From: Candidatus Acidiferrales bacterium
GTDB taxonomy: Bacteria > Acidobacteriota > Terriglobia > Acidiferrales > 2-02-FULL-67-57
Direction: 5' to 3'
NCBI GenBank assembly: GCA_965247455.1
Contig: CBDFHE010000016.1
Coordinates: 79,101-143,100 of the forward strand
Length of the DNA stretch: 64,000 bases
Part shown: piece by piece, positions 2,174-62,179 of the stretch
Position numbering within the stretch: position 1 is the stretch's first letter
How the letters are laid out: every line of letters starts with the position of its first letter
Position numbers and translations under genes: made by a program
The notes under the pieces: generated by a model
What the model was told of the DNA's origin: nothing
What the model saw: the letters and a program-made list of their open reading frames with translations, nothing else
Databases searched by the model: none

Positions 2174-2194
2174 GCCTGCCTACCGCAGGCAGGC
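2174..2194. repeat. Micro-element copy (GC + CTGCCTACCGCAGGCAG + GC) in a GCTTCGCTCGGAATGACA repeat
   Basis: 17-bp core at 2176-2192 between GC dinucleotides; related copies at 3670, 20697, 20845 and 26187. Confidence 0.85.
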
Positions 2195-2267
2195 TTCGCT
2201 CGGAATGACAATGGTGTGTCCCGCGCAAGTGACGTTGGCATATCACTTAGAATGACAGGGGTATAGG

Positions 2268-2765: not shown

Positions 2766-2771
2766 GAGGCG

Positions 2772-2801
2772 GGTGCCAAGCACCTCTTCCAAACTGACTT
2801 T
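2772..2801 (-). repeat. Repeat family R5 (AGTTTGGAAGAGGTGC-NNN-GCACCCGC), empty copy
   Basis: Related copies at 26167-26224, 49572-49617 and 57762-57787. Confidence 0.75.
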
Positions 2802-3502: not shown

Positions 3503-3586
3503 GTGGCGCGGACATTCCTGTCTGCGCAGTGCTGGAGTGGCAGACCCGGGCCAGAGGCGGATGGCAGGCAAGAATGTCTGCCTCAC
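3503..3586. repeat. REP-like doublet (family R1, GTGG/GTAG + GCAGACATTCYTGTCTGC hairpin)
   Basis: Inverted copies at 3503-3527 and 3564-3586. Other pairs at 27386-27451, 33989-34077 and 54994-55059. Confidence 0.85.
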
Positions 3587-3660
3587 TGAGTTGAGAACTT
3601 CCTTGGGGGTATCCGTAGGGGCAAATCTTGTACTTCTTCCGGGAGGCGCGTCACAAAAAT

Positions 3661-3705
3661 AGATTCCTCGCTTGCCTACCGCAGGCAGGCTGCGCTCGGA
3701 ATGAC
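3661..3705. repeat. AGATTCCTCGCTGCGCTCGGAATGAC repeat (family R3) interrupted by the 17-bp micro-element
   Basis: GC(3670-3671) + TTGCCTACCGCAGGCAG + GC(3689-3690). An uninterrupted relative lies at 52646-52673. Confidence 0.8.
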
Positions 3706-10937: not shown

Positions 10938-12607
10938 CCGGGATTTCCGTTTTGCCTGCCCCTGATGGCACGTTTATACACCCGATCGCCGCCGATCGCA
11001 CAAAAACTTCGATCGTCGCACAATCGCTCAGCTTCAAAGGCCTTCATCTGAGCCCGCGCCGACGTGCGACCGACTGGAACCCCTGCTTTTCGGGCATTTC
11101 TCAGACACCGCTCCACACGTGTGCCCCGTGTCATCGCCGGGCGGGCTTCGTTGCACTTCAGGCCGCGCGTCAGCCTGCCGGCACGGGTAGCGCCCAGATC
11201 CTCCGCAGCATGTCGCCGAACAGCCGCCGCGTGAGATGCCCTTCCGCCAGCAGAAGCCAGTAGTACCGCGCATGCTTCACCAGCCGGCCCCCAGTTTTCA
11301 CCAGTCGCTGCTGGAGACTCGTGAGCGACCAGCGCTTGACCCGCAGCGGAAGGACCAGTCTGCGCCACAAGTTGCCCAGATTGTAGGCCAGGACGCTCAG
11401 TTGCAGGCGCACCTCGTTCGCCCGGAAACGATGGCACGACAGCCGCGTCCAGTGGGTGGCCTGCTTGCCTTCCTTGATCCATTGCTCCGCCGTACCGCGC
11501 TTGTTGTAAAACCGCACGACCGAGCGGCTCGGGAGGGCCATGTTGGTCACGATGAAGCCGACGCGAGGGAACAGCTCACCTTGGTGGTGCTCCACCTTGG
11601 CGACGATCCGTCTGGGCGTGGTCCAGCTCTTGGCCTGATAGCGGAAACTCTGGTAGCGCACCAAGGGCTTGCAGCTCGGCCGTCCCGGCGGACGAAAGAG
11701 GATGTCTTCGATTTCCAGCTCCAAGCTCTTGTTCGCCGGCATGCGAATGGCATAGTCCACGTCGCGCTGCTCGAGCGCGTCGTAGATCTCGGGCTTCGCG
11801 AACGCGGCGTCTGCGCGGAACGCTACGCGCTTGCCCTCCACCTGCTGCCGGTCAATCTCCGGTACGAGCAGGTCGTCCCAGTCGTCGGCGCTATGCACGT
11901 TGCCTGGCCGCAGCGTGGCGGCGAGGCAGTCCCCATGCTCGGTGAACAGAAACAGCGGGTGGTAGCAGACGGACTCGAAGTGCCCGTTATAGGCGCTCCC
12001 TTCCTGCGCCCCATGCACCGGGCTCTCGCTCGAATCCATGTCGAGCACGATCCGGTCGGCGCGCGTCGCCATCTCGGCCTGTGCAAGCACCTCCCGGTTC
12101 ACGGCCCTCAACCCGACGAGATTCTCCTCGTGGGTCAGCAGCTCTGTCTCGAACCAATGCAGCGTCGATGTCAGCGCCGCACCCCGGTCCCAGCGCTTTG
12201 GCGACCCGATGAGACGAAATGTTGGGTCTGCCGACACGCGCCCCGCGTCGTTGAGATCTTCGTAGCCCGCGAGGCGACTGTAGACCGACTGCCGCAGGAG
12301 ATCCACCACGCTGAACTGGGTGTTCATCCCCTGTCGGGAATCGCTCAGGTGCTCGGCGATGAGTGTCTCCAGCCCCAGACGTTCATCCAACTCGCGCACC
12401 AGAATGAGGCCAGCGTCAGAAGTGACGCGCGATCCCTGGAACGCGACTTTCAAGAAGCCGTTGAACGCGAACTGGAATGGCTCGTGTTGTAATTCACCCA
12501 CCGGGTGTCACCCTCCGTAGTGTGGTTCCTTACGTCGGAGCCCCAAAACTCAAGGCGCAGCGACTGGTCCTGGCGATACGGTACCACAGCCAAATCGGAA
12601 ATCCGGG
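10938..12607 (-). mobile_element. IS1380-family insertion sequence, 1670 bp
   Basis: Terminal inverted repeats 15/17 identical (CCGGGATTTCCGTTTTG / CCCGGATTTCCGATTTG), with a 5-bp target duplication CTTAG at 10933-10937 and 12608-12612. Confidence 0.92.
11170..12501 (-). CDS. IS1380-family DDE transposase
   Basis: TSDAGL, LAGYEDLNDA, LDMDSS..PVHG.QEG, FRADAAF and YNKRGTAEQWIKEGK. Confidence 0.92.
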   Translation of the reverse strand: MGELQHEPFQFAFNGFLKVAFQGSRVTSDAGLILVRELDERLGLETLIAEHLSDSRQGMNTQFSVVDLLRQSVYSRLAGYEDLNDAGRVSADPTFRLIGSPKRWDRGAALTSTLHWFETELLTHEENLVGLRAVNREVLAQAEMATRADRIVLDMDSSESPVHGAQEGSAYNGHFESVCYHPLFLFTEHGDCLAATLRPGNVHSADDWDDLLVPEIDRQQVEGKRVAFRADAAFAKPEIYDALEQRDVDYAIRMPANKSLELEIEDILFRPPGRPSCKPLVRYQSFRYQAKSWTTPRRIVAKVEHHQGELFPRVGFIVTNMALPSRSVVRFYNKRGTAEQWIKEGKQATHWTRLSCHRFRANEVRLQLSVLAYNLGNLWRRLVLPLRVKRWSLTSLQQRLVKTGGRLVKHARYYWLLLAEGHLTRRLFGDMLRRIWALPVPAG

Positions 12608-20666: not shown

Positions 20667-20696
20667 GCTGGAGAAAGCGCCAGGAAAACCTCGGGG

Positions 20697-20717
20697 GCCT
20701 GTCTGCCGCAGGCAGGC
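20697..20717. repeat. Micro-element copy inserted into a GGGC-TAAA-GCCC hairpin
   Basis: GC + CTGTCTGCCGCAGGCAG + GC; removing it restores GGGGGCTAAAGCCC. Confidence 0.75.
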
Positions 20718-20801
20718 TAAAGCCCTGTTGTTCTTGCCGGGCGGATTGGCTGGTACGGCTCTTGACGCGAACCAGCTTCGCCAAGATCAGTGTCAACTGG
20801 A

Positions 20802-20883
20802 GGTTCAGCCCAGCGGCTTCCGCCGCTGGGTCCCACGGGCCGAAGCCTGCCTGCGGCAAGCAGGCCCGTGGGCTGAACATCGG
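20802..20883. repeat. 63-bp double-hairpin repeat (family R4) carrying a 19-bp micro-element insertion
   Basis: 62/63 identical to the reverse complement of 33807-33869 once 20847-20865 is removed. Confidence 0.9.
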
Positions 20884-20920
20884 CCCAGGATGGGCTACTA
20901 CTCAAAGGCTGTGGGTTTCC

Positions 20921-26166: not shown

Positions 26167-26224
26167 AAAGTCGGTTTGGAAGAGGTGCCTGTCTGCCCTG
26201 CCTACCGCAGGCAGGCTCTGCACC
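26167..26224 (+). repeat. R5 repeat with a 28-bp compound micro-element insertion
   Basis: Removing 26189-26216 gives 27/30 identity to the reverse complement of 2772-2801. Confidence 0.8.
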
Positions 26225-26227
26225 CGC

Positions 26228-27316
26228 CTAGTGTACTGTCCCGGAAATATATGAGCAAAGTCGTTCGACCTTAGCGAGGATGGATTCGGCCGTGGCGGTC
26301 CAGACGAAAGGACTGGTGTTGGCGTTGTAATGTTCGACGAAGCGCTCGATGTTACGGACGAGAGCCTTGACGCTGGAGAAGGAACCTCGGCGAATGGCCT
26401 TCTGGGTAATGATGCCGAACCAGCGTTCGACTTGGTTGAGCCAGGACGCATAGGTTGGGGTGAAATGAACGTGGTAGCGGGGACGCCGAGCGAGCCAAGC
26501 GCGGACTTTGGGATGTTTGTGAGCAGCGTAGTTATCGACGATGAGATGGACGTCGAGGTTGTGCGGCACACTGCCGTCGATCTGACGCAGGAAAGTGAGG
26601 AACTCCTGATGACGGTGTCGCGGTTTACAGCGGGTGATGACTCTCCCGGTGGCCACATCGAGAGCCGCGAACAGAGTGGTCGTGCCGTGACGTTTGTAAT
26701 CATGGGTGACGCCTTCGACGTAGCCGAGGCCCATGGGGAGAACGGGCTGAGTTCGCTGAAGAGCTTGAACCTGGGTCTTCTCATCGACCGAGAGCACCAC
26801 GGCGTGGTCCGGGGGATTGAGGTAGAGACCGACGATGTCGCGGACTTTCTCGACGAAGAACGGGTCGTTGGAAATCTTGAAATGCCGCTGGCGATGCGGC
26901 TGGACGCCGAACAGATCGAACCACCGCTGGACCGTGCTCTTTGAGACTCCCGTGTGTTCCGCCATGGAACGCACGCTCCAGTGCGAACGATCGGGAGGTT
27001 CGGTTTGCAGGGCCGTGTTGATGACTTCCGCAACACGTTCATCCTCATGCGTGCGGGGGCGTCCGGGACGCAGTTCATCGTGTAGTCCGGGGATTCCATG
27101 TTCACGATAGCGCTTTCGCCACTTGCCCACGGTCGTATTGGTGACACCCAGACGCCGGGCCACGGTAGAGCCGGGAACGCCTTCGGCGCAGGCCAGCACA
27201 ATCTGGGCCCTCAGCACCAGACTATGCGGCAAGGTTCGGGAGCGGGCGAGGCTCCCCAGTTCCGATTCCTCACTCTCACTGAGAGTGAGGGGAGTAACGG
27301 GGCGACCGCGTGGCAT
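26228..27316 (-). CDS. IS630-family transposase
   Basis: HTH, RPGRP, WSVRSMA, VDEKTQVQAL, YKRHGTTTLFAAL, DNYAAHK and PTYASWLNQVERWF. The stop codon is formed by the target TAG. Confidence 0.93.
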   Translation of the reverse strand: MPRGRPVTPLTLSESEESELGSLARSRTLPHSLVLRAQIVLACAEGVPGSTVARRLGVTNTTVGKWRKRYREHGIPGLHDELRPGRPRTHEDERVAEVINTALQTEPPDRSHWSVRSMAEHTGVSKSTVQRWFDLFGVQPHRQRHFKISNDPFFVEKVRDIVGLYLNPPDHAVVLSVDEKTQVQALQRTQPVLPMGLGYVEGVTHDYKRHGTTTLFAALDVATGRVITRCKPRHRHQEFLTFLRQIDGSVPHNLDVHLIVDNYAAHKHPKVRAWLARRPRYHVHFTPTYASWLNQVERWFGIITQKAIRRGSFSSVKALVRNIERFVEHYNANTSPFVWTATAESILAKVERLCSYISGTVH

Positions 27317-27379
27317 GGGCATACCTCCAGAGGCCAAAGGTTGCCCATTAATATATCGCTTATTTCCGGGACAGTACAC
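26231..27379 (-). mobile_element. IS630-family insertion sequence, 1149 bp
   Basis: Perfect 19-bp terminal inverted repeats GTGTACTGTCCCGGAAATA; TA duplication within CTAG at both ends. Confidence 0.93.
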
Positions 27380-27385
27380 TAGGTC

Positions 27386-27451
27386 GCAGACAAGAATGTC
27401 TGCGCTACCAAGTTCACATCAAACCCAGTGGGGCGGACATTCCTGTCCGCC
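27386..27451. repeat. REP-like doublet (family R1)
   Basis: GCAGACAAGAATGTCTGCGCTAC and GTGGGGCGGACATTCCTGTCCGCC. Confidence 0.85.
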
Positions 27452-33806: not shown

Positions 33807-33869
33807 CCGATGTTCAGCCCACGGGCTTCCGCCCGTGGGACCCAGCGGCGGAAGCCGCTGGGCTGAACC
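33807..33869. repeat. 63-bp double-hairpin repeat (family R4), empty copy
   Basis: Reverse-complement match to 20802-20883. Confidence 0.9.
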
Positions 33870-33988: not shown

Positions 33989-34077
33989 GTGGCGCAGACA
34001 TTCTTGTCTGCGCGGGGTTGGCGAGGCGGACCCGCCCGTGCCCTGCGGGCTACGGCAGGCAGGAATGCCTGCCCCAC
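33989..34077. repeat. REP-like doublet (family R1)
   Basis: GTGGCGCAGACATTCTTGTCTGCGC and GCAGGCAGGAATGCCTGCCCCAC. Confidence 0.85.
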
Positions 34078-34104
34078 CCAATTCTTGAGAGAACCTCCCC
34101 TGGC

Positions 34105-35341: not shown

Positions 35342-36544
35342 GTGCACGTCTTAGCTCGTCCCAATTCGTTTCGCTTCCCCACCCTGGCTCTGGTTGTGGT
35401 TCTGCTTGCGACCGGATTGCTGGCCGGCTGTGGAGCGGACGCCCCCCGCCGCCTCGCTCCGCAGGTCTATGCCTTCGTAAGCAATGGCGGCAGCCACACG
35501 GTTACGGTGGTGGACCTGGCCACACTGGAGACGGTGGCGACCGTGCCGGTGGATTACGGTCCCAGCCGAATTCGCGCCCACCCGACGCGCCCGGAAATCT
35601 ACGTGGTGGCCGCCGAGGCGGATCGCGTGGACGTGCTCGACGCCCGCACGCATCAAGTGGCGACCCGCATCGAGGTGGGTGAGCGGCCCTACAGTCTCGA
35701 TTTCTCGCCCGACGGGCGGCGGGCCTACGTGGCCAATTGGGACTCGAACACGGTGAGCGCAATCGACTGCGCGCGCCGGCAAGTGGTCGGCACCGTGCGC
35801 GTGGGCCGCCGGCCGGCGATGGCGCGGGTGACGCCCGACGGAGCCCTACTGGTGGTGTCCAACCGCGCCGACTCCACGGTTTCCCTGGTGGCTACCGAAA
35901 CCCTGGAGGTGGTGGCAACCCTTGCGGTGGCGCGCCATCCCGAGGCTCTCACCATCCTGCCCGACGGCTCCAAAGTCTTCGTCGCCGCCACCGGCAGCGC
36001 GCAGGTGTCGGTGGTGGACTTGCAGCGCCGGGTTCTGCTGACCAATCTCGCGGTGGGAGAAGCTCCCATTGACCTGGTGCTGAAACGCGACGGCGGCGAG
36101 CTGTTCGTGGCCAACTTCGACTCCCACACCATCACCGTCATCAATACCTGGAGAAACGAAGTCACGGAAACCTTGCCCGCCGGGCGCAACCCGGTGCGCT
36201 TGCTGGTGAGCGCCGACGGCGAGCAGCTCTACGGCATCCACTACGGCTCCGGCGCCGTGTTCGTGGTGGAGGTTGCAACCCGGGAGGTGGTGGCCAACAT
36301 TCGCGTCGGCTTGCAACCCGGTGCCGGCGCGATGACCCCGGATGAGTCGCTGCTGCTGGTGGTCCATGCGGGCTCCAACGATATGGCTGTCATACGCCCG
36401 GCGGCACGGGCGCTTTCCACTTTGCTCCCGGTGGGTCTCCGGCCGCAGGGAGTGGCCGTCAAGGTTCTGCCCCCGGATTCAGCTGCCGGCTCAGGCGGGA
36501 CATCTGCTGGGGGCGTGCTAGAATCCCACTCAGACGCCAAATAG
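35342..36544 (+). CDS. YVTN/YncE-type beta-propeller lipoprotein
   Basis: Lipobox LLAGC and repeated (S/T)PDG..YV.N..S.TVS.ID units. Confidence 0.8.
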   Translation: MHVLARPNSFRFPTLALVVVLLATGLLAGCGADAPRRLAPQVYAFVSNGGSHTVTVVDLATLETVATVPVDYGPSRIRAHPTRPEIYVVAAEADRVDVLDARTHQVATRIEVGERPYSLDFSPDGRRAYVANWDSNTVSAIDCARRQVVGTVRVGRRPAMARVTPDGALLVVSNRADSTVSLVATETLEVVATLAVARHPEALTILPDGSKVFVAATGSAQVSVVDLQRRVLLTNLAVGEAPIDLVLKRDGGELFVANFDSHTITVINTWRNEVTETLPAGRNPVRLLVSADGEQLYGIHYGSGAVFVVEVATREVVANIRVGLQPGAGAMTPDESLLLVVHAGSNDMAVIRPAARALSTLLPVGLRPQGVAVKVLPPDSAAGSGGTSAGGVLESHSDAK

Positions 36545-52490: not shown

Positions 52491-52645
52491 GCTTTGGCCG
52501 TGACCAACCGGCGAAACCGAAACTTTACGCGCAACCCCCTGCGCGGGCAACCCCCGCTGTGGGTGCGGGCAAGAGAGTTCCCCTCAGGGCGATCCCTTGG
52601 GCAGAAGCCTCGGGCTGAAGCCTTCAGGACGAGGCCCCGCCACTC

Positions 52646-52673
52646 TGTCATCCCGAGCGAAGTCGAGGGATCT
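52646..52673. repeat. TGTCATCCCGAGCGAAGTCGAGGGATCT repeat (family R3), uninterrupted
   Basis: Reverse-complement relative of the reconstructed hosts at 2193-2210 and 3661-3705. Confidence 0.75.
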
Positions 52674-54052: not shown

Positions 54053-55021
54053 ATGCCCTTCCGCGTCTGCCGTTCTTTGGACGAATTGCCCGCCCCGCTG
54101 CCGCACTTGGTGTTGGGCATCGGCAACTTTGACGGCATACACCGCGGCCACCAGCGCATTTTCCGGCATGTGGTACGCGAGGCCCGGGCACGGAACGGCA
54201 CGGCGGCGGCTCTGACCTTCGACCCGCATCCCAGCCGGGTGCTGGCTCCGGCCTCCGCTCCGCCCTTGCTGATAACGCTGGCGCAGAAGCTCAGCCTGCT
54301 GGAAGCGGCGGGGATTGAATTGGTATTGGTCCTCCCGTTTACTCGCGCGTTGGCGCAGCTTTCGCCGCCGGAGTTTGTGCGCGAGATTGTCCATCGGCGG
54401 CTGGCGGCCGAGGTTGTCTTGGTGGGATCGAACTTCCGCTTTGGGCGCGGCCGCGCCGGGAACGTGCAGGTGCTGGGCAAGCTGGCGCGTGAGTTCGGCT
54501 TTGCGCAAAAAATCGTTCTTCCGGTGAAGGTGGGTGGGCAGACGGTTTCCAGCAGCTTGATTCGTCGCCTGGTGGCCGATGGGCGCATCGACCGCGCCGC
54601 CCGCTTGCTGGGGCGTCCCTTTGCCGTCACCGGCGCCGTTCAGCCGGGAGCGCGGCGGGGCGCGCCCCTGGGTTTCCCAACCTTGAACCTGCTCCCGGAG
54701 CAGGAGTGCCTGCCGGCGCGCGGGGTGTACATCACCGAGACCTTGCTGGAAGGGGAAGCCTATCCCTCCGCCACCAACGTGGGCGTTCGCCCCACCTTCG
54801 GCGATCAGCGCCTGGTGGTGGAGTCGCACCTGTTGGATTTCAACCGCACCGTCGCCGAGGGCCGGCTGGAAGTGCGCTTCCATCACCGCCTGCGCAAGGA
54901 GAAGAAGTTTCGCTCGCCCCAGGCCCTGCGGGCACAGATTGCGCGCGACGTGGAACGGACCCACCGTTATTTCCAGCAGCGCACCCGCCCGCTGCGCAGG
55001 CAGGAATGCCTGCGCCACTGA
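54053..55021 (+). CDS. ribF: Bifunctional riboflavin kinase / FAD synthetase
   Basis: GNFDGIHRGH, TFDPHP, SSSLIR, LGFPTLN, NVGVRPTF and VESHLLDF. Confidence 0.95.
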   Translation: MPFRVCRSLDELPAPLPHLVLGIGNFDGIHRGHQRIFRHVVREARARNGTAAALTFDPHPSRVLAPASAPPLLITLAQKLSLLEAAGIELVLVLPFTRALAQLSPPEFVREIVHRRLAAEVVLVGSNFRFGRGRAGNVQVLGKLAREFGFAQKIVLPVKVGGQTVSSSLIRRLVADGRIDRAARLLGRPFAVTGAVQPGARRGAPLGFPTLNLLPEQECLPARGVYITETLLEGEAYPSATNVGVRPTFGDQRLVVESHLLDFNRTVAEGRLEVRFHHRLRKEKKFRSPQALRAQIARDVERTHRYFQQRTRPLRRQECLRH

Positions 55022-55059
55022 ATTGCTCTTTCCCGGTGGGGCAGACATTCTTGTCTGCC
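54994..55059. repeat. REP-like doublet (family R1); the left copy lies inside the ribF 3' end
   Basis: GCGCAGGCAGGAATGCCTGCGCCAC (54994-55018) and GTGGGGCAGACATTCTTGTCTGCC (55036-55059). Confidence 0.85.
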
Positions 55060-60637: not shown

Positions 60638-60667
60638 ACTCTATCGTCTGCCACGTGAATCAGTCAA
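60638..60667 (-). promoter_or_regulatory. Candidate sigma70 promoter for the TonB-dependent receptor
   Basis: TTGACT (60667-60662), 18-bp spacer, TAGAGT (60643-60638). Confidence 0.55.
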
Positions 60668-60714
60668 GAGTGGAGAGAATTTTCTGTTGCAGGCTGGTTG
60701 CAACTAGTTGCAAC
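60668..60714 (+). repeat. 47-bp direct repeat, left copy, abutting the IS left end
   Basis: 45/47 identical to 62101-62147; contains the perfect 18-bp palindrome GTTGCAACTAGTTGCAAC. Confidence 0.92.
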
Positions 60715-62100
60715 TGTAGCTGCAAAGTGAGAATGTCCTATTTGCGCAAAGTAGGAATGTCCTCTTTCATCAGGGCCAGGAGGGACGATGAGAGAGGAGC
60801 GAATCGAATTGAGCCAACGGGAGCAGGATTGGTTGAAGGTACTCCACCAAGTCGAGCAGGGCTATCTGACCCAGGTGGAAGCGGGCCGGCGGGTGCAGGT
60901 GAGCGTACGCCACCTGCGGCGTCTGCTGAGACGGGTGCGGGCGGAGGGGGACAGGGGCGTAGTGCATCGGCTGCGGGGGCGGCCCTCGAACCGGAAGATT
61001 CCAGCGGCCCTCCAGGGGCGCATCCTGGCCCAGGTGCGGCGGCGCTACGCCGACTTTGGGCCCACGCTGGCCAGCGAGCACCTGGCGCGAGATGGGTGGC
61101 AGGTCAGCCGGGAGACGCTGCGGCAGTGGATGACCGCCGCCGGGCTGTGGCGGTCGCGCCGGCAGCGGAGGCCGGCGGTGCACGTCTGGCGAGAGCGGCG
61201 GGCCGCCTTCGGCGAGTTGGTGATGATGGACAGCTCGCCCTATCGCTGGTTGGAGCGGCGCGGACCTCCCGTGCAGTTGATCGCGCTGATCGACGACGCT
61301 ACCAGCCGGGTCTGGGGCCGCTTCGCCGCCCAGGACTCGACCGAGGAAAACCTGCGCACCCTGGCAGGCTGGCTCCGGCGCTGGGGACGGCCGCGGGCAC
61401 TCTATACCGACAAAAGCAGCCTGTTCCGCACCACCCGCTCGGCCCGGCTCGACGAGCAGCTCGGCGGTCAGCCGGCCCGCACCCAGATCGGGCGGGCCCT
61501 GCAGGAGTTGGGGATCGAGTGGATTCCCGCCCACAGCCCCCAGGCCAAGGGGCGCATCGAGAGACTATTCGGCACCTTGCAGGACCGCCTGGTCAAGGAG
61601 ATGCGCCTGACCGGGGTGCACACGGTGGAGCAGGCCAACCGCTTCCTGGCAGCAGTCTTCCTGCCTTTCTGGGAGCAGCGCTTCACCGTCGCTCCGCGCC
61701 AGCCGCACGATGCCCACCGCCCGCTGGGAGGCACCCAGCGGCTGGAGTCAATCCTGAGCGTGCGCGAACCGCGCCGGGTGGCAGGCGACTACACCGTGCG
61801 CTGGCAGGGCCAGCGCTGGGCGATCCCGCGCGCCCAGGTGCGAGCGGGGTTGCGGGGGGCGCGGGTGGAGGTCGAACGGCGGCTCGACGGCAGCCGCTGG
61901 GTCCGCTTCCGCGGCTCTTATCTCAGCCTGCGGCCCTGCCCGAGCCCGCCGCCCGCGCCCGCAACCCCCTTCGGCCTACGGCCTACGGGGCTTGCGGGCC
62001 CAAGGAAAGGCAAACGAAAGTACATTCTCCCTCCCGATCACCCTTGGAGGAGGACATTTCTATCTGGCAAAAAACCGGACATTTCTACTTTGCGTTGACA
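60715..62100 (+). mobile_element. IS1202-group (ISNCY) insertion sequence, 1386 bp
   Basis: TGT...ACA ends; imperfect inverted repeats with two internal (A/G)AATGTCC / GGACATTT boxes at each end. Confidence 0.88.
60788..62098 (+). CDS. IS1202/ISNCY-type DDE transposase (integrase-core fold)
   Basis: HTH, YADFGPTLASEHL, GELVMMDSS, IDDATSR, YTDK, SPQAKGRIERLFGTLQDRL and C-terminal PDHPWR. Confidence 0.9.
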   Translation: MREERIELSQREQDWLKVLHQVEQGYLTQVEAGRRVQVSVRHLRRLLRRVRAEGDRGVVHRLRGRPSNRKIPAALQGRILAQVRRRYADFGPTLASEHLARDGWQVSRETLRQWMTAAGLWRSRRQRRPAVHVWRERRAAFGELVMMDSSPYRWLERRGPPVQLIALIDDATSRVWGRFAAQDSTEENLRTLAGWLRRWGRPRALYTDKSSLFRTTRSARLDEQLGGQPARTQIGRALQELGIEWIPAHSPQAKGRIERLFGTLQDRLVKEMRLTGVHTVEQANRFLAAVFLPFWEQRFTVAPRQPHDAHRPLGGTQRLESILSVREPRRVAGDYTVRWQGQRWAIPRAQVRAGLRGARVEVERRLDGSRWVRFRGSYLSLRPCPSPPPAPATPFGLRPTGLAGPRKGKRKYILPPDHPWRRTFLSGKKPDISTLR

Positions 62101-62147
62101 GAGTGGAGAGAATTTTATGTTGCAAGCTGGTTGCAACTAGTTGCAAC
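62101..62147 (+). repeat. 47-bp direct repeat, right copy, abutting the IS right end
   Basis: 45/47 identical to 60668-60714. Confidence 0.92.
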
Positions 62148-62179
62148 ACGACCCGCGTTTTGCTCTTAGGAGAGCCTGC

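Follow-up and report, generated by a model that had tools for sequence, protein, structure and literature searches.

Location and sequence of the element

The DNA under study is a stretch of 64,000 nucleotides (the window; G+C content, 63%) from contig CBDFHE010000016.1 of a Candidatus Acidiferrales bacterium, and the element in question is a 19-nt palindrome, CCTGCCTRCCGCAGGCAGG, that interrupts hairpin repeats in this window. At the locus 3661-3705, the sequence reads AGATTCCTCG-CTTGCCTACCGCAGGCAGG-CTGCGCTCGGAATGAC, in which the middle segment is a copy of the element and the outer segments belong to the interrupted host repeat. The general form of the element is CCTGCCT-RCCGC-AGGCAGG with a stem of 7-8 bp, and it occurs as two sub-families with the loops ACCGC and GCCGC, the G variant being a perfect 19-bp palindrome. 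When folded as single-stranded DNA, the GCCTGCCT-ACCGC-AGGCAGGC hairpin reached -9.0 kcal/mol (z = -4.0). A degenerate 21-mer matched at five window sites, namely 2174, 3670, 20697, 20845 (minus strand) and 26196, which gave 10 strand-matches compared with 0.02 expected from shuffled sequences; the five copies counted in an earlier sequence-only reading of this DNA were thus borne out. All five copies are intergenic. The analyses below indicated that the element is very probably a discrete mobile insertion, and the explanation favoured on balance is that of a non-autonomous, 19-nt palindromic mobile micro-element whose sites show an excess at the tips of hairpins.

The copies and their hosts in the window are as follows:

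2175..2193, plus strand: copy 1, CCTGCCTACCGCAGGCAGG; downstream of a MOSC-domain gene
3661..3705, minus strand: host of copy 2, a GTCATTCCGAGCG..CGAGGAATCT-type hairpin repeat, broken at the loop edge
3671..3689, plus strand: copy 2, CTTGCCTACCGCAGGCAGG, with T for C at position 2; within the locus 3661-3705
20698..20716, plus strand: copy 3, CCTGTCTGCCGCAGGCAGG, inside GGGGC-TAAA-GCCC; in the spacer of convergent SSB and MacB-type permease genes
20803..20878, minus strand: host of copy 4, about 57 nt of structured repeat lengthened by the insert of 19 nt; its outer stem GTTCAGCC/GGCTGAAC encloses two hairpins
20846..20864, minus strand: copy 4, CCTGCTTGCCGCAGGCAGG; at the 5' loop edge of a 9-bp hairpin, CCCACGGGC-TTCG-GCCCGTGGG; in the SSB/MacB spacer
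26184..26224, minus strand: host of copy 5, a GGGTGC-AGA-GCACCTCTTCC-type hairpin repeat
26188..26196, plus strand: 9-nt half copy abutting copy 5, CCTGTCTGC
26197..26215, plus strand: copy 5, CCTGCCTACCGCAGGCAGG; between an ECF sigma-factor gene and an IS630-family transposase gene

Filled and empty sites

In this study, the element was excised in silico and the joined flanks were searched against the window and the collected loci, which are stretches from other genomes and metagenomes that carry the element (numbered with the prefix L). This search yielded approximately 20 filled/empty pairs, in every one of which the two members differ by one gap of exactly 19 nt, which confirmed the proposal that the element is a discrete insertion. 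Pairs at sites without flanking GC (L145, L155, L197 and L028) likewise showed a gap of 19 nt. The window itself holds the following uninterrupted relatives of the host repeats:

2767..2790, plus strand: empty host of the copy 5 family, GGGTGC-CAA-GCACCTCTTCC
33812..33868, plus strand: empty paralogue of the copy 4 host; 98% identity over the 54 nt of 33807-33860 with one 19-nt gap; -29.3 kcal/mol, z = -7.5
52645..52672, minus strand: empty host of the GTCAT family, GTCATCCCGAGCGAAGTCGAGGGATC; 96% identity over 28 nt to the excised site of L226
57765..57777, plus strand: second empty hairpin of the copy 5 family, GGTGC-TGA-GCACC

For copy 4, the filled sequence CCCACGGGC[CTGCTTGCCGCAGGCAGGC]TTCG stands against the empty CCCACGGGC-TTCC, and a second empty copy of this host was found in an Acidiferrales metagenome-assembled genome (MAG; L106). 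The copy 4 host with its insert folded as single-stranded DNA at -33.9 kcal/mol (z = -6.5). The host of copy 2 belongs to a widespread GTCATYCCGAGCG..CGAGGRATC-type hairpin repeat (GTCAT..CGAG..GGAATC); after excision, it was 96% identical over 27 nt to an empty copy at L203 1978-2004 and also matched the window at 52645-52672. In hosts of this GTCAT type, the element occurs in either orientation relative to the host, and many genomes hold the element at the same GAG^CG site. The host family of copy 5 (GGGTGC-NNN-GCACCTCTTCC) is filled at the 3' loop edge, that is, at the opposite edge, in L046, and the total insert at copy 5 in the window is 28 nt (the 9-nt half copy plus the 19-mer). For the host of copy 3, no second copy or empty paralogue was found. 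At least three host families in the window are therefore real and unrelated, each with uninterrupted window copies.

The sequence-only reading had further held that excision restores a mini-hairpin at every site. This was not borne out as worded: the "GC-TTC-GC" of copy 1 is a 2-bp stem with chimeric flanks, the insert at copy 5 has the 28-nt length given above, and the locus 3661-3705, in contrast to copy 4, folds weakly as single-stranded DNA (z = -0.37). At copy 1, the right flank (2194-2209) is a half repeat of the GTCAT family as at copy 2, and the left flank is unrelated and resembles an L052-type host. Moreover, copies 1 and 2 share 36 nt at 94% identity (family D6). The two copies may thus not be independent, and copy 1 may be a duplicated or recombined composite instead of a separate insertion.

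A relative, L126 (94% protein identity), carries copies 4 and 5, and its ortholog of copy 5 differs by one G>A change. The SSB/MacB spacer (20667-20920) comprises 254 nt of nested repeats in the window and 268 nt in L126, whereas in L128 (a 79% relative) the same spacer, 11225-11238, is 14 nt long and free of repeats. At L126 7318-7360, the copy 4 ortholog is followed by TAAAGCCC, which in the window is the right flank of copy 3. The chimeric flanks of copy 1 (window 2174-2209) and of the L126 copy 4 ortholog suggested recombination between copies of the element.

Boundaries and target site

Flank statistics were taken from a scan in which only the 19-nt core was fixed (129 copies). The left neighbour was G in 56%, A in 22% and C in 18% of these copies, and the right neighbour was C in 38%, G in 35% and T in 22%. 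A G..C pair flanked 26 of the 129 copies (20%), and A..T, G..G and C..C pairs were common. The same base stood on both sides in 51 of 129 copies, which falls short of a fixed-length target duplication. Positions -4 to -1 and +1 to +4 were variable, with no conserved tetranucleotide on either side. The junction ambiguity ranged from 0 to 5 nt with a mean of 1.19 nt, compared with 0.66 nt at control positions, and it was zero in 26% of the copies (34/129) compared with 57% of the controls. The preferred target is thus a G^C step, and there is no target-site duplication. The gap stays at 19 nt at sites flanked by G and C as well, and these flanking bases therefore belong to the host. Their preference lengthens the element's own stem by a further pair; the two "GC" are also the outermost pair of that stem, so the boundary is ambiguous from the window alone. 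The duplicated GC described in the sequence-only reading consequently proved to be a feature of the window copies, and beyond the window GC is a preference.

These boundaries bear directly on the possibility of a miniature inverted-repeat transposable element of the DDE type, with a 17-nt core and a 2-bp GC target duplication. In the window, GC stands at the end of all five copies and at the start of four, and an IS630-family transposase gene lies beside copy 5. However, G..C flanks make up only the fifth of copies noted above once the core alone is fixed, with the other pairs common, and the non-GC filled/empty pairs (L145, L155, L197 and L028) still show the 19-nt gap. IS630 elements duplicate TA. 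Furthermore, the empty copies of the copy 5 host adjoin no insertion sequence (IS), and no parent IS with matching ends was seen in 255 loci. An origin of this kind is therefore highly improbable. The earlier rejection of a DDE transposase accordingly holds insofar as a duplication of fixed length is lacking, every gap measures 19 nt and the 255 loci showed no parent IS; it is weaker than originally worded, since repetitive extragenic palindromic (REP) sequences are documented IS targets.

The transposase open reading frame (ORF) beside copy 5 lies at 26228-27379 (minus strand), encodes DDE_3 and HTH_23/HTH_29 domains and ends 12 nt from the copy. The sequence CTAGTGTACTGTCCCGG beside the host hairpin of copy 5 may be the end of this IS.

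Preference for hairpin tips

The sequence-only reading had proposed that target choice is directed by structure, and had suggested that all copies be excised and compared with random GC sites. This comparison was carried out with 257 de-duplicated copies from other genomes and metagenomes, each excised junction being set against control positions in the same sequence at a distance of 25-120 nt. The junction was spanned by a perfect stem (6 bp or more; loop of up to 9 nt) in 33 of 257 copies (12.8%) compared with 3.9% of controls (odds ratio 3.7, p = 2e-9), and the profile was sharply centred on the junction with a peak at offsets 0 to +4. Against local G^C steps, the frequencies were 13.9% and 4.5% (odds ratio 3.5, p = 0.001), with most copies lying outside a strong hairpin. 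Loops, and especially the loop-closing G^C step, are thus over-represented as proposed, and the structural rule covers a smaller share of sites than had been supposed. Two other measures were uninformative: duplex energy gave high control rates and single minimum-free-energy folds of 60-90 nt were noisy.

Among 52 perfect-stem hosts, the junction lay at the 5' loop edge in 15, at the 3' edge in 18 and inside the loop in 19, and these counts ruled out a rule of insertion always at the 5' edge of the loop. Many of the loop-edge junctions are loop-closing GC dinucleotides; where a hairpin is closed by GC...GC, insertion may be at the first or the second GC, with the element in either orientation. 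In addition, the element lies in tRNA-Leu-like 5' fragments at GGTAGA^CGCGC (L136; a 20-nt relative in L028), a position that we take to be the D-loop edge of the D-arm. The element is also nested at its own dyad centre in L030, L208, L244 and L246.

Several results weigh against structure as the guide of insertion. More than 80% of the copies lie outside a strong hairpin, with clear hairpins at approximately 13-20% of sites, and in minimum-free-energy classes the hairpin-loop context at the junction was 24.1% compared with 23.1%, with a weak peak of 30.7% at 2 nt away. The composite unit CCTCCTC[..]CAAAGGAGG occurs in five loci, four of which are contigs of one MAG, and two near-identical composite units are present in each of L049, L109 and L110. 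Such composites of host and element, together with the common flank of copies 1 and 2, make the instances non-independent, so that the significance is inflated and the p-values are optimistic. Moreover, the loop excess could reflect survival, because an insertion in the loop keeps the host stem intact.

From such observations, it could be argued that structural targeting is absent, that insertion occurs at G^C steps nearly anywhere in non-coding DNA, and that the loop bias arose because stem insertions were lost and host repeats carrying the element were amplified. The large share of sites outside strong hairpins, the nearly flat minimum-free-energy test, the recurrent composites (D6 in the window and those just named) and the GAG^CG site of the GTCAT family filled in many genomes are in keeping with this explanation. 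It does not readily account for the 3.5-fold enrichment relative to local G^C steps for stems of 6 bp or more, the sharply centred profile, the loop-edge placement across many host families or the nesting exactly at the element's own dyad centre, and we regard it as unlikely. The hairpin-tip preference is real and covers a minority of the copies. The tips are, in our judgement, slightly more probably targeted than merely tolerated, and the data fit each of structure-directed targeting, survival of loop insertions and composite-repeat amplification.

Variants and distribution among phyla

The element scans matched at least 118 stretches in species-representative genomes and at least 120 in metagenome contigs, and two viral scans found the element in 15 distinct viral contigs. 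Use of the variants was strongly skewed, with 110 of 136 matches falling on 2 of the 16 variants allowed by the first search pattern, and this dominance indicated that most matches are real. The motif GTAG is present only in the loop of the opposite strand of the A variant and is absent from the G variant. A C>T strand asymmetry in the 5' arm, hinted at by the window copies, was not seen in 31 copies that were unselected by the search pattern. Most loci hold a single copy, a few hold tandem or nested copies, and inverted pairs are not predominant. Stop-free reading frames, as a test for copies within genes, were uninformative in G+C-rich DNA.

The loci range in G+C content from 0.32 to 0.75. 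By record title, the hosts among the matches listed include Acidobacteriota, many Bacteroidota, several lineages of Patescibacteria, as well as Thermodesulfobacteriota, delta- and gamma-proteobacterial MAGs, Planctomycetota, Verrucomicrobiia and Omnitrophica. The Bacteroidota hosts include isolates of Galbibacter, Algoriphagus, Daejeonella, Mangrovibacterium, Pedobacter and Sphingobacterium. Filled/empty pairs within one genome were found in the window (Terriglobia), an Uhrbacteria MAG (L105), a Parcubacteria MAG (L050), Galbibacter orientalis DSM 19592 (L028), an Algoriphagus MAG (L079), a Gammaproteobacteria MAG chromosome (L114), an Acidobacteriota MAG (L025) and a delta-proteobacterial MAG (L022). 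These pairs indicated that the element was inserted in place in each of those lineages.

It might be asked whether there is an element at all, as opposed to chance GC-rich palindromes or an assembly or adapter artefact. By a uniform-composition estimate, the 19-mer is expected by chance about 9 times in 596 Gb, and there are a few chance-like matches with odd variants in apparent coding sequence (Rhizobium L053, Rheinheimera L038 and Lachnoclostridium L014). Chance or artefact is at odds with the five window sites where 0.02 were expected, with the numbers of stretches matched in the two collection scans, with filled/empty pairs in both isolates and MAGs, and with orthologous copies that differ by a point change in two independent assemblies (the window and L126). 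This explanation is scarcely credible and, for the great majority of copies, is refuted. No paper was found in a full-text literature search with the element sequence (both strands, both variants), and a literature search on nested REPs returned general matches only. A search of the whole window against Rfam at gathering thresholds matched no family.

Search for a moving factor

The near-invariant sequence across phyla, together with exact boundaries at the base of the stem, led us to infer a sequence-specific factor acting in trans. Such a factor would recognise the hairpin and cut or copy it at its foot, and the hairpin would then be joined into DNA exposed at extruded or single-stranded hairpin tips. 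The logic would be like that of single-strand transposition (RAYT/IS200-like), with the enzyme itself being putative. That a dedicated trans-acting enzyme is responsible appears plausible, though somewhat short of probable, and an enzyme of the HUH type, as the sequence-only reading had expected, seems unlikely.

No gene family recurs within 1.2 kb of the element in approximately 255 loci, the largest cluster being ABC ATPases at 5 loci, and no parent IS with matching ends was seen near these loci. A cluster of tyrosine-recombinase-like neighbours was reduced to a weak match at two loci. Other observations count against a moving enzyme. Neither the window nor approximately 1.75 Mb around the 257 copies yielded a Y1/RAYT HUH transposase, with an approximate IS608 TnpA sequence as the query. 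A GIY-YIG nuclease, a lead taken from cassettes of Galbibacter described below, was present at only 4 of 255 loci, and its proximity was not significant given the locus lengths. The flanks held neither the fixed tetranucleotide that IS200/IS605 or RAYT systems need nor any other conserved target or guide motif of 4-5 nt, and the junction ambiguity of 1-3 nt fits an enzyme-free template switch equally well.

A template switch had also been suggested in the sequence-only reading. A local switch was excluded, as the insert is a fixed 19-nt sequence beside unrelated flanks and does not match nearby DNA in reverse complement; a switch to a copy elsewhere is possible. In an enzyme-free process of copy-choice, a nascent 3' end paused at a hairpin in the course of replication or gap repair would anneal to a further copy of the element over 1-3 nt, as a rule G or GC, and copy 19 nt, after which a snap-back hairpin would release the strand and allow its return to the original template via C or GC. 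The enriched junction ambiguity (1.19 versus 0.66 nt; none in 26% versus 57%) and the coincidence of the unit ends with the stem base agree with this model, as do partial or aberrant products, such as the 9-nt half copy at copy 5 and the truncated outer copies in L052. The lack of an associated gene, the presence of the element in genomes labelled Patescibacteria and the nesting of other hairpin families in the same spacers point in the same direction. However, the 19-nt boundary is exact even at zero ambiguity (for example, in L145; 34/129 copies). Moreover, a passive process should give lineage drift, hairpins peculiar to each lineage and compensatory stem changes; instead, the same sequence with few variants is found across phyla. 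In addition, polymerases would be expected to stall at the base of a template hairpin and not at the loop edge. Copy-choice is accordingly a possibility, if a rather doubtful one.

Alternatively, the 19-nt palindrome could be self-propagating "naked" mobile DNA without a transposase of its own, which would spread between phyla, possibly on phage or plasmid DNA (compare the 15 viral contigs), and multiply in any bacterium through universal replication or repair at hairpin tips. We consider this improbable. If it were true, no smaller mobile genetic element would be known, and the palindrome would act generally to build up nested hairpin repeats in intergenic DNA.

Comparison with known systems

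The element behaves as a very small mobile palindrome similar to REPs and small dispersed repeats (SDRs), and its unusual features are the 19-nt size, the exact filled/empty record and the cross-phylum distribution. As a 19-21 nt hairpin with an 8-bp stem that is G+C-rich, multi-copy and extragenic, the element fits those criteria of REPs, whose range is 20-40 nt. REP families are generally lineage-specific and co-evolve with their RAYT, whereas the element is common to distant phyla. The nearest published behaviour is that of the GTAG- and CGTC-tagged REPs, which like the element are short, G+C-rich, extragenic multi-copy hairpins with some located in small host palindromes (PMC3733652). For example, GTAG-23 of T. 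roseum lies inside CCGSSCC(n3,4)GGSSCGG, of which the genome holds hundreds of empty targets (Di Nocera, De Gregorio & Rocco 2013, PMC3733652), and CGTC-tagged REPs are found in five phyla with no associated transposase gene (PMC3733652). Unlike the tagged REPs, the element lacks both kinds of tag (GTAG and CGTC) as well as a CCA tail, measures 19 nt instead of 20-40 nt and occurs mostly as single copies and not as dimers. Furthermore, its whole sequence, and not a tag alone, is constant across phyla, and the present analysis records exact 19-nt filled/empty pairs in many host families.

The REP/REPIN-RAYT system shares with the element a single hairpin that could be recognised by an enzyme and cut on either side, no target duplication, presumed mobilisation of non-autonomous copies in trans and a logic of single-stranded DNA (PMC3479197, PMC3116915). 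RAYT needs a 5' GTAG next to the hairpin and cuts at CT (PMC3479197); in contrast, neither GTAG nor a CT cut site is conserved in the element. RAYT genes are flanked by their own REPs, and no such gene was found near any copy of the element examined.

Elements of the IS200/IS605 type insert into single-stranded DNA. They resemble the element in having hairpin ends, no DDE-type terminal inverted repeats and no target duplication. They require a pair of different subterminal hairpins, and their insertion takes place 3' of a fixed tetra- or pentanucleotide that a guide sequence reads (PMC3479197), whereas the element has one hairpin and no conserved target, and no TnpA was found with the approximate query in 1.75 Mb.

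The repeats nearest in size are the SDRs of Nostocaceae, which were reportedly described by Elhai and co-workers in 2008 as 21-27 nt long, supported by filled/empty sites and nested in other repeats. As a dispersed repeat of less than 30 nt that is mobile by approximately 20 filled/empty pairs, the element corresponds to the SDR type by description. It differs from the SDRs in its non-cyanobacterial hosts and shorter length (19 nt). According to PMC3116915 (its reference 43) and PMC5861425, the SDRs are very small, dispersed, non-coding repeats that their authors judged to be mobile. SDR5 was reported to insert at the HIP1 palindrome, and SDR-like repeats were said to be absent outside Nostocaceae (PMC5861425).

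Palindromes are also targets of larger elements. REP loops serve as insertion sites for IS1397, a DDE element of the IS3 family, and certain members of the IS110 family likewise target REPs. REP-targeting insertion sequences are full-length and encode their own transposase, whereas the element is 19 nt long and carries no gene. According to PMC3733652, which cites Tobes & Pareja 2006, REPs are documented landing sites for insertion sequences, and insertion of IS1397 specifically into palindromic units is attributed to reference 41 in PMC3116915.

If confirmed, the element would be among the smallest mobile DNA units described. To judge from our literature searches, it would also be the first of these to have been inserted in place, with its sequence essentially unchanged, in phyla as distant as Acidobacteriota, Bacteroidota, Patescibacteria and Proteobacteria. 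It offers a countable system for studying how REP-like hairpins spread and why they are nested, as an exact 19-nt gain at a G^C step is easily scored. The growth of gene spacers could be explained in the same way, as with the SSB/MacB spacer of 254 nt in the window and 14 nt in a relative. The element also calls for caution in annotation, because spurious ORFs read through repeats that bear it. An activity that inserts DNA at hairpin tips would be of practical interest if the responsible factor were found.

Related repeats and other observations

The structured repeat of about 57 nt that hosts copy 4 is common to acidobacterial MAGs (window 33812-33868 and 20803-20878; L106 3233-3281; L052 4441-4468). 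It consists of an outer stem and two hairpins of 7-9 bp, CACGGGC-TTCC-GCCCGTG and CAGCGGC-GGAA-GCCGCTG, reached a z of about -7 when folded as single-stranded DNA, and had no Rfam match at the gathering threshold. Other hairpin families in the same spacers are nested as well.

Even-centred relatives of 20 nt, CCTGCCTRCCGGYAGGYAGG, lie beside or around the 19-mer at L036 246-290, L048 2973-3015 and L113 5358-5412, so that the micro-element is one of several related palindromes of the form CCTGCC...GGCAGG, which make up a small family. A paired-hairpin repeat, GTGGCGCAGACATTCTTGTCTGC ... GCAGGCAGGAATGCCTGCCCCACC, has four copies in the window (3503-3592, 27386-27450, 33989-34083 and 54996-55058), and its stems share the words CAGGCAG/CTGCCTG with the micro-element in reversed arm order. 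In the viral contig L007, the micro-element lies in the loop of a repeat of the first type.

In Galbibacter orientalis DSM 19592 (L028 6380-7220), two tandem cassettes stand beside a tRNA-Leu(caa) gene identified with ARAGORN. Each cassette comprises a tRNA-Leu-like 5' fragment with the 20-nt relative CTGTCTGCCGACAGGCAGGC, followed by a gene for an 82-residue GIY-YIG nuclease, and one cassette also contains the 19-mer. Hairpin repeats of the GTCAT type border GIY-YIG genes in L204 and L146.

Two longer repeats were also observed in the window. A 48-nt direct repeat with GTTGCAAC palindromes, 96% identical between its copies at 60667-60714 and 62100-62147, occurs once at the start and once just before the end of a 504-residue ORF (60655-62169) that had no Pfam match. 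At 35501-36301, three units with a spacing of 378 nt lie inside the ORF 35342-36544; since this ORF encodes a beta-propeller protein (YNCE-like, with lactonase-type repeats), the units are ordinary protein-internal repeats.

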